Shown here: in pieces, positions 25,778-47,341 of the stretch
Layout of the letters: each line of letters starts with the position of its first letter
How positions within the stretch are numbered: position 1 is the stretch's first letter
NCBI GenBank assembly: GCA_951406725.2
Contig: OX597832.1
Location: forward strand, 33,790,001 to 33,854,000
DNA length: 64,000 nucleotides
Reading direction: 5' to 3'
Origin: Octopus vulgaris
Lineage: Eukaryota
Translations under genes and position numbers: made by a program
Notes under the pieces: generated by a model
Told to the model about the DNA's origin: nothing
Seen by the model: the letters and a program-made list of their open reading frames with translations, nothing else
The model's database searches: none

Positions 25778-25863
25778 ACTTTCCCGAAGAGAAGATTGCA
25801 TTGTTTATACAATTTATTCTTTTAAATAGTATCAGTGGAATTTTCGAAACATGTGTCGAAAGT
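25778..25863 (+). ncRNA. Type-I hammerhead ribozyme motif with one core mutation (family H1, diverged member)
   Basis: ACTTTC-CCGAAGA-gaagattgca...tggaattttc-GAAAC-ATGT-GTC-GAAAGT; stem I is perfect; downstream tail to ~26060 is homologous to 47072-47276. Confidence 0.7.
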
Positions 25864-42200: not shown

Positions 42201-44261
42201 CAGCAGCAGCAGCAGCAGCTTGTTGTTTGCTAGGATTTTATTTTTTATTCCCTGTGTGAAAAAGTGTACTTTACAATGTTTACATAAATATTTGTATAAC
42301 AAACCCTTTGTTTTAGGCGCCATGTTTCAAAGGCATTTTTAACTCCACGCATTTTATCGTATATTTAGTATTTTGTTCTCTTTTTTTTATTTTCATTATT
42401 CTAATTATATAAATTATATTTATGAAGTTATTTAAGTCTTGTTATTTACTTCACTTTTCCATATTTCTTATTCCGATCTGCAACGAAACTTTCAATTAAT
42501 TGAGATTTAATTAAGAGCAATTTTCGTAAATTTAATTTACATTTAATTAACCTAGTAGCTTTTTAAATTTATTCAATTCAAGTCACAGCTTATTCTCCAT
42601 CCCAATCATACATTTCTACGCAGACACATGTGTTCTTTCATTAACAAGATTCAACATTCTATTCTCTTATACACGCCCGGAAACATTTTTTCATACTAAC
42701 GATGTTCCTTTTTTTCTTTTTCTTTTTTGATACATGTTACAGCTTCGATTTTTAAAAACCTATTGAATTTTAAAATAGAGCAATTTTCAGTAGAAATACC
42801 ATATTTGTGTCAACTAATCAGCGATCGCTCTTCTTTTGTTTAGTTAAACAATTGTATCACTCAACTATTTGAATTTTAAACAATATAACGATCTTTTACA
42901 CATCTTAAGACTCCTCCAAATTCTTCTTCTTCTATTCACAATTGTTGCTCTCCTTATTCCAATATTTTCTCTATTACAGTCTTCCGCATTGATTTTACAT
43001 TTATTCCCAGACATTATTTCTCCTTTCTTTCCTGTTCTACTTAAACCGTCGTCTTCTTTCTCTATTTTCAATACTATCGTCTTTTTGGTTCTGTTTTTGC
43101 TTTTTGCTTTCTTTTTTTGTTGTTGTTTCGTTTATGTTTCTGCTGAGGCGTGGTTATGTTGTTACGAAACTGGACCTGTGAACCACGCGGTTTCTGGTTC
43201 AGTTCCACAGCACGACAACTTTGTTCTCTGGCATTTACAATAGGTTCAATAACGACCAATGCATTGTGAATCAAGTTGTTGAGCGAGAATTCAGTGGCAG
43301 CTGTTCGTGTGTGTGTGTGTATGTGTGTATGTATGTGTGTGTGTGTGTATACACAGATATATATACCTACATATATAAATAAATAGACTGATAGATAGGT
43401 AAATAGATAGAGCTATATATGCATCTATGCATACATAATTAAGGATAAAATCAATTAATGATCTTATCAGTGGCCAGCATGTAAAATACCATGCATACAT
43501 ACATATATTCATATACATATATATATATACATATATATATATACATATGCATTTATATATATACATACATACATATATATATATACATATATATACATAC
43601 ATATATATACATATATATATATATATACATATATATACATACATACATACATACATAGATACATAAATATATGACTCCATATCGTAAAATCGAACGCCCT
43701 TCGGACAATGGTTACCACTACCTAGTCCTTGAATTGCCCTAAACCGAATCATCCTACACATGGATTAAGTTACCTTTTGAATTCCTTAGTTGTACGACGC
43801 TTTTGTACTGTTAATAAGATTTCATGCAGTGACGTAGGTATAAAAAATTAAACAAAAAGTTTAAAATGATGTGTATATTTTTTTCTTTCTTCTCTCTCTC
43901 TTGCTTCTACCTTTTCTCTTTTCGAAGAAAAAATGTTTCTCCCAGCGTTCACTGTTTATTCTCTCTAACGACCCATTCGTGTTTGTCTCCGCTGTCATGT
44001 TTTTGTTCCAACTTTGACCTTCCATAAATCCTGAATTTTATTTTAGAATTTATGGGAGCAACTGTCTTTGAAAACTCATATTGTCGTTGAAACTCGAAAT
44101 GACGAGTAGATAGACAATCCGCAACCGATGAAGGGTTCCTTTTCTGAGTTTACTTGTCTTGTTGTCCAAATGCTTTACGTTTGTTTACGTGTTTCATGTT
44201 ATTTGCACATTTGGTGACGTCCTGTACATATATATGCATGTAGATATATGTATATATATAT

Positions 44262-44551: not shown

Positions 44552-44570
44552 TTATATATATATATATATA

Positions 44571-44730
44571 AGGAGTGGCTGTGTGGTAAGTAGCTTGCTA
44601 ACCAACCTCATGGTTCCGGGTTCAGTTCCACTGCGTGGCATCTTGGGCAAGTGTCTTCTGCTATAGCCCCGGGCCGACCAATGCCTTGTGAGTAGACTTG
44701 GTAGACGGAAACTGAAAGAAGCCTATCGTA

Positions 44731-44804
<74 letters not shown>

Positions 44805-45028
44805 TGTCTTTGTGTGTCTGTGTTTGTCCCCCTAGCATTGCTTGACAACCGATGCTGGTGTGTTTACGTCCCCGTCACTTATCGGTTCGGCAAAAGAGAC
44901 CGATAGAATAAGTACTGGGCTTACAAAGAATAAGTCCCGGGGTCGATTTGCTCGAATAAAGGTGGTGCTCCAGCATAGCCGCAGTCAAATGACTGATACA
45001 AGTAAAAGAGTAAAAGAGTAAAAGAGTA
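44571..45028 (+). mobile_element. Young, near full-length SINE family A with internal (TA)n(TG)n and (agtaaaag)n tail
   Basis: ggagtggctgtgtggtaag head, gggttcagttcc B-box and a well-preserved body. Confidence 0.9.
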
Positions 45029-45036
45029 TATATGTG

Positions 45037-45086
<50 letters not shown>

Positions 45087-45130
45087 GATAGATATATAGA
45101 TAGTTAGATATAATATATATATATATATAT

Positions 45131-45517
45131 TTGAGTAATTGAATGAATTATCTTATTAACGATAATTCGAAAGATAACCGATACCTGGGAAGCAAATTCA
45201 CATCAGATAGAACACGGTTGAAGCTATGTCGCTAGGGCATAGACTACGTGTCTTCGTGCGGAAATTTGTATGTTTATTTTAAAATTATAAGTATCTGAAA
45301 GAATGGAGTTGAACGACTAGTTAACAAATATCTTTTATTCTCGACATATGTTTCGAAGGCTGCATATTCCTAATTCCGAAGGAATAAGGAGTACATTATG
45401 CAGATTTCTCTTCAAAATGCACAAAAATCTTTTAGCTGACGCTCTCAAGGAGCCCATGGCGATATTTGTTAACTAGTCGTTCAACTCCATTCTTTCAGAT
45501 ACTTAAAATTTTAAAAT
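45131..45517 (-). mobile_element. Family H1 fold-back element (sister of 46728-47276) with decayed hammerhead
   Basis: ~45277-45332 is inverted at 45461-45516; minus strand TTGAAGA-gaaatctgcat...atgcagccttc-GAAACATATGTC; shares the CCATGGGCTC motif and ~145-bp tail. Confidence 0.8.
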
Positions 45518-45530
45518 ATATATATATATA

Positions 45531-45818
45531 AGGTTAATCCAAACGGGAAAACAGAAAAAACAACAACACGTGGAACAATTAAAGTATTATTATTAGGCGC
45601 TCAGGAAAAATGGAAGAAGGAGGGTATGACGTTTCGAGCGGATCTCTTCGTCGGAAACATAAGAGAAGGAAGAAAGAAGAAAGAAAGATCCCGATGTGGG
45701 CGAACAGAGGGAAAAAAACGCGACTGGTGTTTACGAAGTACACATGCTGAAAGGCCAGAAGTTTTGGATAACAAGGGCAAAGTAGGTTTTTAAAGCCAAA
45801 AGAGTGGAGACAGGAAGG

Positions 45819-45820
<2 letters not shown>
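45531..45820 (-). mobile_element. Family H2 hammerhead-bearing terminal repeat
   Basis: Minus strand gttt-CCGACGA-agagatccgctc-GAAAC-GTC-atac; flanked by (TA)n. Confidence 0.7.
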
Positions 45821-45856
<36 letters not shown>

Positions 45857-45864
<8 letters not shown>

Positions 45865-46290
45865 AGATAATTGACAATCCAATAATTTAATATAATATTA
45901 AAGATTTTGACAATCCAATAATTTATTTATATTATAATATTACATGATATACAATGAATATAATATAACATTGCTTAATATTGTATAACATAAACAATTA
46001 TTTAAGCCATAAAAGCCCAACAAATTGTTTCGACTGACATATGTTTACATAATAACAGTTCGCTTAGATGGTTTAATAATTGTTTATGTTATATAATATT
46101 ATATTATATCATATTCATAGTATTTCACGTAATATTATAATATAAATAAATTATTGAATTGTGAATAGTATTTCCTTATTTATCTTTATAATTGCGTTAT
46201 ATGAATATTTATATGGTATTCAACTGACGTATCAGTGAATTGGATGTTTAACACACCCCTTTGGAGGATTTCTTTTCCTCAGTTTGCGTG
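45857..46290. mobile_element. AT-rich fold-back module (family H4) with decayed hammerhead and tail
   Basis: ~45905-46010 is inverted at ~46066-46168; minus strand cagtc-GAAACAATTTGTT-gggc; relative at ~47675-47845. Confidence 0.6.
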
Positions 46291-46370
46291 TGTGTATATA
46301 TATATATTAAAAGAATGAGATAAAAAAATCCAAAGCTGTGAATAGTTTTCAAAACATTTATAACGACAAG

Positions 46371-46419
46371 GTCTTACAGATAATTTCCGGGATATTTTAT
46401 ATATCCCTTCATCAGAGAC
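46371..46419 (-). ncRNA. Type-I hammerhead motif with altered stem III (family H3) inside module 46305-46550
   Basis: GTCT-CTGATGA-a-gggatat..atatccc-g-GAAA-ttatct-GTA-AGAC; stems I and II are intact. Confidence 0.6.
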
Positions 46420-46551
46420 GGTGCGAGAAAATGTTTAAGTAATAGTTATTATAGAGAAGATATGAAATACAGAGTGAAGTGTAGGAATGAAAACAGACGT
46501 GAGAAACGTAAGGATATTGTATCTCCAGTTCCATTATTTAAGCAGAATGGC

Positions 46552-46643
<92 letters not shown>

Positions 46644-46788
46644 TGTACCTTGTGTGTGGCTTCCAAGGATGTATGTATATATATATATGTATATGTATAT
46701 GTATATATACACATATATATATATATATATATATTTAGTGTAGGAAGAAATGGAGCTGAACGAAGACTTAACAAAATTCCTTTTTATT

Positions 46789-46874
46789 ATTTTCTACATA
46801 TGTTTCAAAGGCTGCAAAGTCCCTAATTCGGACTGAATAAGGAGTCCATTTTGCAGCCTTCTCTTCAGGAAAAT
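46789..46874 (-). ncRNA. Second copy of the same hammerhead, on the opposite strand
   Basis: Reverse complement of 46986-47071, with one difference in the stem II loop. Confidence 0.85.
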
Positions 46875-46985
46875 CCAGGAACTTAATTCTCCAACAAAAA
46901 GTACAGCAAGCTTTTTTCCATGGGCTCCTCGTGAGCGTTTGTCGAAAAGCTTGCTGTACATTTTGTTGGAGAATTAAGTTCCTGG

Positions 46986-47071
46986 ATTTTCCTGAAGAGA
47001 AGGCTGCAAAATGGACTCCTTATTCAATCCGAATTAGGGACTTTGCAGCCTTTGAAACATATGTAGAAAAT
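46986..47071 (+). ncRNA. Apparently intact type-I hammerhead ribozyme
   Basis: Stem I ATTTTC/GAAAAT, core CTGAAGA (46992-46998), 12-bp stem II GAAGGCTGCAAA/TTTGCAGCCTTT, GAAA, palindromic stem III ACATATGT, cleavage triplet GUA (cut after 47065). Confidence 0.85.
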
Positions 47072-47341
47072 AATAAAAAGGAATTTTGTTAAGTCTTCGT
47101 TCAGCTCCATTTCTTCCTACACTAAATATATAAAACTTCAAATTTCCGCACTAAGGCACGGATTTTAGACCCCATGGTCGTAACCTCAACCGTGCTTTTT
47201 CTGTTGTGATTTTTGCTACCCAGGTATCGGTTATCATTTGAATAATCCGTAATAAGATAATTCATTTATCTACAAATATATATATATATATGTGTGTGTG
47301 TGTGTATATGTATATATAAATATATGTGTATATATATATTA

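Follow-up and report, generated by a model that had tools for sequence, protein, structure and literature searches.

We begin by considering the Penelope-like elements (PLEs), for which the literature already describes a tail, inverted copies truncated at the 5' end, hammerheads in the pLTR, targeting of (TA)n and two internal starts of the RT (PMC8557442 and PMC4209133, both in part; PMC11167929), where "in part", here and below, marks a source consulted as an excerpt. The origin of the tandem and inverted ends and of the tails of PLEs is called open in PMC8557442 (in part), and the steps after initiation are called unvalidated in PMC11167929. In the Poseidon element PAc of the green anole (Frangieh et al. 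2024, PMC11167929), two internal RT starts bound the tail, as we propose for the element described here; its AT-rich targets, a pLTR that runs into the ORF side and a ribozyme cut that does not define the copy ends are likewise found here. Both strands are cut and extended in that system, a dimer is predicted, the ribozyme is not required, and the RT initiates in vitro on RNA of the pLTR-ORF junction (PMC11167929). The element described here differs in that its two sites lie about 142-154 nt apart and are TA-rich like the target, in that its ORF starts downstream of the tail, and in the kind of evidence, which is biochemical for PAc and genomic here.

Penelope of D. virilis (Schostak et al. 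2008, PMC2377424, in part) has the same partial tandem layout, where one copy's 3' end serves as leader for the copy that follows, and the same inverted, 5'-truncated copy of variable size. Its promoter lies inside the pLTR and its start is mapped, whereas our start is deduced, and it has a 34-bp repeat in place of our tail of about 143 nt. The non-LTR retrozymes (bioRxiv 10.64898/2026.07.22.740005, in part) are, like the copies described here, short, hammerhead-bearing and pLTR-related; they are tandem monomers, however, and one exact gapped pattern finds no such junction here.

The window is a stretch of 64,000 nucleotides (G000:C19:33790001-33854000) within the 2.8-Gb assembly of Octopus vulgaris, and it contains two insertions that each consist of a tailed forward arm and an adjacent inverted arm. 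They belong to two families, B on the plus strand and A on the minus strand, and their features are collected in Table 1. We count family positions backward from the 3' end of the element, where 0 is the end of the tail and is called site 1. On this scale CCATGG starts at -357 in family B (natural copy L033) and at -358 in family A (natural copy L147). The core of the hammerhead begins at -283, with its predicted cut near -209/-211. All junction positions are BLAST ends with an accuracy of about +/-5 nt.

Table 1. Features of the two insertions in the window.
Feature	Position	Strand	Remarks
Family B inverted arm	46728..46915	-	Family -142 to -330, starts at site 2 next to (TA)n; second hammerhead motif at 46872-46791
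Family B forward (tailed) arm	46916..47276	+	pLTR of the autonomous element, 5'-truncated at about -359 and running to the 3' end
CCATGGGCTC...GAGCGT motif, family B	46918..46938	+	The module conserved in both families begins here; hotspot of 5' ends; putatively just inside the transcription start
Type I hammerhead motif	46987..47070	+	Predicted cut after 47065
Site 2	47123..47132	+	Internal TA-rich point where inverted arms begin; putative second RT start
Tail, 144 bp	47133..47276	+	Between site 2 and site 1; runs on into the ORF leader in tandem copies
Family A forward (tailed) arm	45128..45464	-	About -363 to the 3' end; 30 nt missing near 45410, which breaks the hammerhead
Family A inverted arm, 57 bp	45461..45517	+	Family about -143 to -200; joined via 4-nt microhomology
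CCATGGGCTC...GAGCGT motif, family A	45439..45459	-	Differs from the family B 21-mer only in the 5-nt loop

The initial annotation of this DNA had described inverted arms of about 56 and 188 bp, a GCTC/GAGC stem that is kept while its loop differs, and a common internal AT-rich point at which both arms stop, leaving a tail of about 145 bp, and the measurements agree on each count. The inverted arm of the plus copy pairs with 46945-47132 over 188 bp with 2 mismatches, and that of the minus copy pairs with 45276-45332 over 57 bp with 1 mismatch, the pairing extending to 60 bp into the TA repeat. The arms of both copies start at the same aligned TA-rich point, 8 nt ahead of AAATTTCCGCAC, the family A tail is about 142-145 bp long next to the 144 bp of family B, and the sole difference between the two 21-mers is the 5-nt loop. 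The same annotation placed both inversion junctions 1-2 nt from the motif. This holds for the family B copy, where the junction is 2 nt ahead of CCATGG at 46918, but less strictly for the family A copy: the 4 nt before its junction (TATC) match both the inverted arm and the native upstream sequence of the family, so that its forward arm possibly starts up to 5 nt before CCATGG. Copy A also lacks 30 nt between two TGA words, and with them C3 and the 5' strand of stem I of the hammerhead, and this deletion junction is found in only one other place, a 2.2-kb ORF-bearing copy.

The next question is "do the two copies descend from one insertion?" Their flanks have no common non-repeat sequence except one 26-bp AT-rich match, the two copies share about 76% identity here, and either one has a separate set of relatives at 96-99% identity (first-look candidates numbered 1997 for one tail and 1485 for the other, and 40 were scored in each case). 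Because the flanks are unrelated and the families are distinct, the two are independent insertions, as had been supposed from the letters, and an origin from one duplicated insertion is ruled out. Elsewhere in the window, 44570-45030 and about 43180-43280 hold two partial copies of a common interspersed repeat (families D11 and D19) with a tRNA-like head by eye, which is frequent in the flanks of the examined loci.

Both window insertions are truncated 3' ends, that is pLTRs, of two related protein-coding Penelope-like families. Many relatives continue upstream of CCATGG through a 3' UTR of about 500 nt into an ORF, and the parent element is about 3.6 kb long. In copy L033 this is an open ORF of 900 aa (L033:6274-8973) with an RT and a GIY-YIG-like C-terminus; it contains the FDI and YRDD motifs of a PLE-type RT and has 41 homologues at E<=0.001. 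In the alignment with these homologues its C-terminus presents AIY...YIG and aligned R, H, E and N residues, which we take to be a GIY-YIG endonuclease. This reading is also supported by PMC8557442 (in part); a Pfam search of the ORF gave no significant match. Family A has ORF-bearing copies of its own, with ORF DNA 77% identical to that of family B. The 3' UTRs of the two families are unalignable, and similarity resumes exactly at CCATGG.

The 3' ends of the tabulated tail set run into TA repeats, which points to a (TA)n target, a repeat that masks any target-site duplication. In partial tandems the tail reads directly into the ORF leader, and the tail motif lies at most 120 nt upstream of 22 of 29 ORF starts (seven in one array on C20; L229 has no direct join), a join that corresponds to the partial-tandem pLTR layout known for PLEs (PMC2377424, PMC8557442, both in part). 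The C20 array (L233-L236, G000:C20:23330747-23354589) comprises seven ORF starts of a third subfamily at spacings of about 3.2 and 3.7 kb, one of them inverted, and none of its seven ORFs is full length. At L212:1490-1630 (minus strand) the tail and the ORF leader base-pair with each other over 11 bp, and the resulting stem encloses site 1 (z -2.3, with 4 of 200 shuffles as good); the same segment could also be a GT-AG intron of about 68 nt, whose AG some copies lack. The stem is impossible in a solo copy that is followed by (TA)n. Contigs of six presumed-RNA runs cover both the pLTR and the ORF; contigs cannot show starts, among the pieces listed none spans the tail-ORF join by 31 letters on each side, and no joint in these contigs matches the possible leader intron.

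With the Hydra clade of C-terminal EN+ PLEs (Craig et al. 2021, PMC8557442, in part; for example Hydra-1_Obim), the element has in common a GIY-YIG-like C-terminus without CCHH, a (TA)n target and a hammerhead near the 3' end. The DKT motif of the clade is found at 122, its RWK motif corresponds to RWL at 37 (the RW part being counted as present), and its CxxC and CxH beside the conserved E and N correspond to CALC at 860 and CTH at 888. By eye, the RT motifs in the available part of the Hydra-1_Obim protein (supplement, in part) resemble those of L033. On the other hand, the CxCX5C linker motif of the clade, which is present in the aligned homologues, is absent here and a 163-aa stretch rich in Asn and Ser stands in its place; Hydra elements are generally shorter than 3 kb, against about 3.6 kb for the unit here; the Hydra-type tail is 30-40 bp, against 142-154 nt; and the hammerhead listed for Hydra-1_Obim differs from ours (all PMC8557442, in part). 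Since the linker motif is absent, we call the element Hydra-like and do not assign it as a member of the clade, the placement being made by motifs and not by an RT tree. The RT-EN linker of L033 (23% Asn, no Cys) recurs in family A, and Asn-rich inserts in the Penelope ORFs of rotifers are a parallel to it (PMC3846280, in part). Identity with the Naiads was considered and rejected, as these carry an N-terminal endonuclease and the element here a C-terminal one.

We turn our attention to the ribozyme. The pLTR carries a type I hammerhead motif with a 5-bp stem I, a CUGAAGA core, a long stem II, GAAA, and a 2-bp stem III with a palindromic loop, for which self-cleavage is predicted; type I hammerheads with a short palindromic helix III are described in PMC4209133 (in part). 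The core is nearly invariant in 11 copies from several subfamilies, and 87% of the stem cells in these copies are paired, compared with 34-50% when the partners are slid. Covariation among the 11 copies is weak and not clearly above shuffles, and an Rfam search for a hammerhead returned none at the gathering or E-value thresholds. The cut was tried as the 5' end of the copies and set aside: the interval -215..-205 holds the ends of 6 of 98 tailed and 7 of 52 inverted arms, which is at best a weak, uncorrected excess. The hammerhead would not be needed to set the 5' end. Similar motifs occur elsewhere in the window. Beyond the TA repeat of copy A, 45518-45760 (minus strand) is the end of another repeat with a minimal hammerhead-like motif at about 45625-45655 (by eye), and probably belongs to another PLE family that uses the same microsatellite. 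Between TA repeats, 46300-46545 (minus strand) has a hammerhead-like core near 46419-46385 with a stem II of 7-8 bp, a third PLE-like end within 2 kb, and 25780-25861 (plus strand) has a hammerhead motif that resembles the more distant subfamily of the C20 array.

Where, then, do the copies end? An exact 25-nt tail pattern has at least 917 matches in the genome, of which the first 100 along the genome were mapped, covering C1 and most of C2. After removal of two double counts (L161, L199) there are 98 forward arms, and since the segmental duplicates L128/L129 and L036/L037 share junctions and flanks, L129 and L037 were dropped to leave 96 insertions. Pattern matches in genome order are used for the counts because score-ranked searches with a 361-nt query favour copies that reach CCATGG. 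The 98 forward arms end anywhere from -57 to full length: 67 before -341, 14 within -341..-385 and 17 beyond -385, with only 3 at CCATGG proper (-364..-356). Given this spread, the 5' end is not fixed. The rate of truncation per 100 nt, however, is 0.3-0.6 before the interval -341..-385, 1.3 inside it and 0.1-0.2 after it; 14 of the 30 tailed arms at risk end in this hotspot, and a peak as strong in any 45-nt window was given by 19 of 1500 constant-rate simulations. In a second sample, the first 30 of 130 family B inverted-arm starts, which has a few insertions in common with the first, 11 of 19 at-risk site-2 arms end at -354..-378, and none of 1500 simulations is as strong.

At base level many ends lie 0-12 nt before CCATGG, and the position 7 nt before it recurs in 4 arms of family A and 3 of family B, in a set that includes score-ranked loci. 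Among the family A CCATGG cores on C1-C4, taken in genome order, the exact 29 nt upstream are kept in 19 of 57 (hand count), against 9 of 14 arms known to continue. Solo arms, which have no partner, end at the hotspot as well. The coincidence with CCATGG is beyond chance, but the hotspot is about 25-45 nt wide and no fixed end exists; ends range from -343 to -382, some of them up to about 24 nt upstream of the start that we propose. At L030 and L243, additional A/T runs or slipped repeats separate the two arms of hotspot junctions, which is what an RT that reaches the end of its template would be expected to leave. Words resembling TATA, Inr and DPE are seen near CCATGG by eye; their spacing differs between the families and they are not counted as evidence.

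A peak followed by a lasting drop in truncation points to two classes of template, one of them bounded near -365, and the pile-up likely marks the start of an mRNA driven by the pLTR. We consider this the simplest reading because the pLTR of D. virilis Penelope carries a promoter (PMC2377424, in part), although the breadth of the hotspot speaks against it. The initial annotation had supposed an RNA with a fixed 5' end upstream of the ribozyme and not at its cut site. A preferred boundary near CCATGG, away from the cut, is indeed present, but it is not fixed, as the 3 ends among 98 at CCATGG itself make plain.

The inverted arms begin at far more uniform positions. In family B 21 of 25 start at -142; in family A (n=37) they start at a few TA-rich positions between about -143 and -157, with 13 at -154, 8 at about -143 (reported as -137, since BLAST runs into the TA repeat), 4 at -148 and a few others. 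All these start positions are TA-rich, as is site 1, and the fixed internal priming site suggested for the two window copies is thus recovered across both families. An adjacent inverted arm accompanies 61 of the 96 tailed insertions: 51 from site 2, 1 from site 1, and 9 others that are cut by the edge of the locus or start further in, so that the statistics of site-2 pairing below omit 10 of the 61 two-arm insertions. Conversely, of 30 arms selected for site 2, 21 are paired with a tailed arm, 8 are solo and 1 is paired with another site-2 arm. The pairing of a site-1 arm with a site-2 arm is near-obligate; an independent choice would give many like-with-like pairs, which are rare here.

The ends of the paired arms are matched as well. 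They lie at most 25 nt apart in 19 of 51 insertions (permutation mean 7.6; none of 20000 permutations as high), and this match holds when the CCATGG cluster is left out (13/22, p 0.0007). The inverted arm reaches more than 25 nt beyond the tailed arm in 27 of 51 and therefore holds sequence that is absent from the tailed arm and was not copied from it; the arms overlap in 35 and do not overlap at all in 16. Only 5 of 51 insertions have a tailed arm that is clearly ahead (permutation mean 12.6, p 1e-4), and both window copies belong to this minority class.

In L1 twin priming, the second strand of the target primes internally on the same RNA and a 5' inversion results. The insertions described here differ in that the internal site is fixed and in that most pairs of cDNAs overlap to give inverted repeats. 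Site pairing, matched ends and the order of the arms are together compatible with two enzymes on one RNA, a leader at site 2 and a trailer at site 1. An autonomous, Hydra-clade-like Penelope element with a (TA)n target is, in our preferred explanation, the parent of both window insertions; each is the 5'-truncated 3' end of one of its two families, probably made by twin priming. On a single RNA, each of the two cut target strands would prime RT at its own TA-rich site, the two sites being separated by about 142-154 nt. Transcription of the mRNA would begin within the upstream pLTR, some 7 nt ahead of CCATGG and with scatter; an RT that initiates on the leader copy of the pLTR could extend at most about 360-380 nt before it runs off at the RNA 5' end, while long copies would come from initiation on the downstream pLTR. 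With the leading RT at site 2 and the trailing RT at site 1, the latter would either stop behind the former, leaving a non-overlapping inversion, or presumably displace the leading cDNA to form an overlapping inverted repeat. Repair would presumably join the two cDNA ends, often by microhomology, and the tail would be the distance between the two RT starts.

Against twin priming it counts that both window copies are in the class with the tailed arm ahead, and that Frangieh et al. find initiation at sites that are not homologous to the cut DNA (PMC11167929), whereas both sites here are TA-rich like the target. A more specific form of the model is offered tentatively, with a chance that we put somewhat below even: on the pLTR leader of a single mRNA, an RT dimer would prime from both cut strands at two sites separated by about 143 nt, the trailer would displace the leading cDNA, both would run off at the cap, and a stem between the tail and the ORF leader, impossible in solo copies, would license the priming.

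The initial annotation had preferred a defined SINE-like PLE parasite of about 330-360 nt, and this is supported neither by the counts given above, by which most copies are shorter or longer than such a unit, nor by the extension of copies through the 3' UTR into a 900-aa RT-endonuclease ORF. Its broader form, a non-autonomous SINE- or retrozyme-like RNA of about 350 nt that solo pLTR copies would supply and the PLE protein would mobilise in trans, is in our judgement quite unlikely. It would suit the hotspot near CCATGG, which is real in both families, and the module conserved between A and B that starts there, and non-autonomous elements derived from pLTRs do exist (PMC8557442, MRC1; bioRxiv 10.64898/2026.07.22.740005; both in part). 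The same scatter of lengths argues against it, however, and on trees of the last 345 nt (33 rows for A and 43 for B, copies reaching -335) the short and long copies do not cluster, with 11 changes against a shuffled mean of 10.9 in A and 15 against 14.4 in B. These trees are star-like and of low resolution, and a small private lineage of short copies is compatible with them. A head-to-tail monomer junction from tail to CCATGG has 0 matches in the genome for the one exact gapped pattern, the direct run of the tail into the ORF leader in partial tandems likewise speaks against a separate short element, and the only other copy with the deletion of copy A is long and ORF-bearing. An RT that initiates on the leader pLTR of an autonomous mRNA would explain the short class without a SINE.

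The pile-up could also reflect a stall of the RT or a repair hotspot on full-length RNA, caused by the GCUC hairpin, the CCATGG palindrome or CCAT/ATGG microhomology, an explanation that we hold to be unlikely. Several junctions do use the palindrome or CCAT microhomology, the hotspot is broad, and the small stem is kept in both families, but partnerless solo arms end at the same hotspot, the local fold is weak (z -1.5), and a stall does not predict that truncation is 3-5 times lower past -385. Self-priming of one cDNA by fold-back, proposed in PMC3846280 (in part), or synthesis on an antisense template could produce the inverted arms if an endonuclease trimmed the hairpin at site 2 and left the tail, a kind of EN-mediated resolution proposed in PMC8557442 (in part). 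The nearly symmetric junctions (19 of 51) agree with this, and taken alone that class also fits fold-back, which may account for part of it. Yet the inverted arms that exceed their partner by more than 25 nt, those without overlap and the 8 of 30 site-2 arms without any partner need separate priming at site 2, and we find fold-back very unlikely as the source of the inverted arms. Twin priming on one RNA remains the reading that we prefer.

What appears to be new here is genomic support for a twin-priming mechanism in PLEs; the element class, the tail, the inversion and the ribozyme were already known. In the full-text literature covered, which is mostly non-subscription and without the older papers on Penelope structure, we found no account of PLE copies in which the pairing of sites is obligate, the arm ends match, run-off peaks where the pLTR starts or the tail is about 143 nt long. 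The family is young, its ORF is open, its tail of about 143 nt resolves the two starts, and its hundreds of countable junctions allow quantitative predictions, for which we offer site pairing, leader-trailer order and the run-off point. If the RT dimer and run-off at the cap are correct, most copies would be promoter-length by-products of the 5' end of an autonomous mRNA. The case is also a warning not to take short copies for a SINE simply because they bear a hammerhead and have a preferred 5' end.
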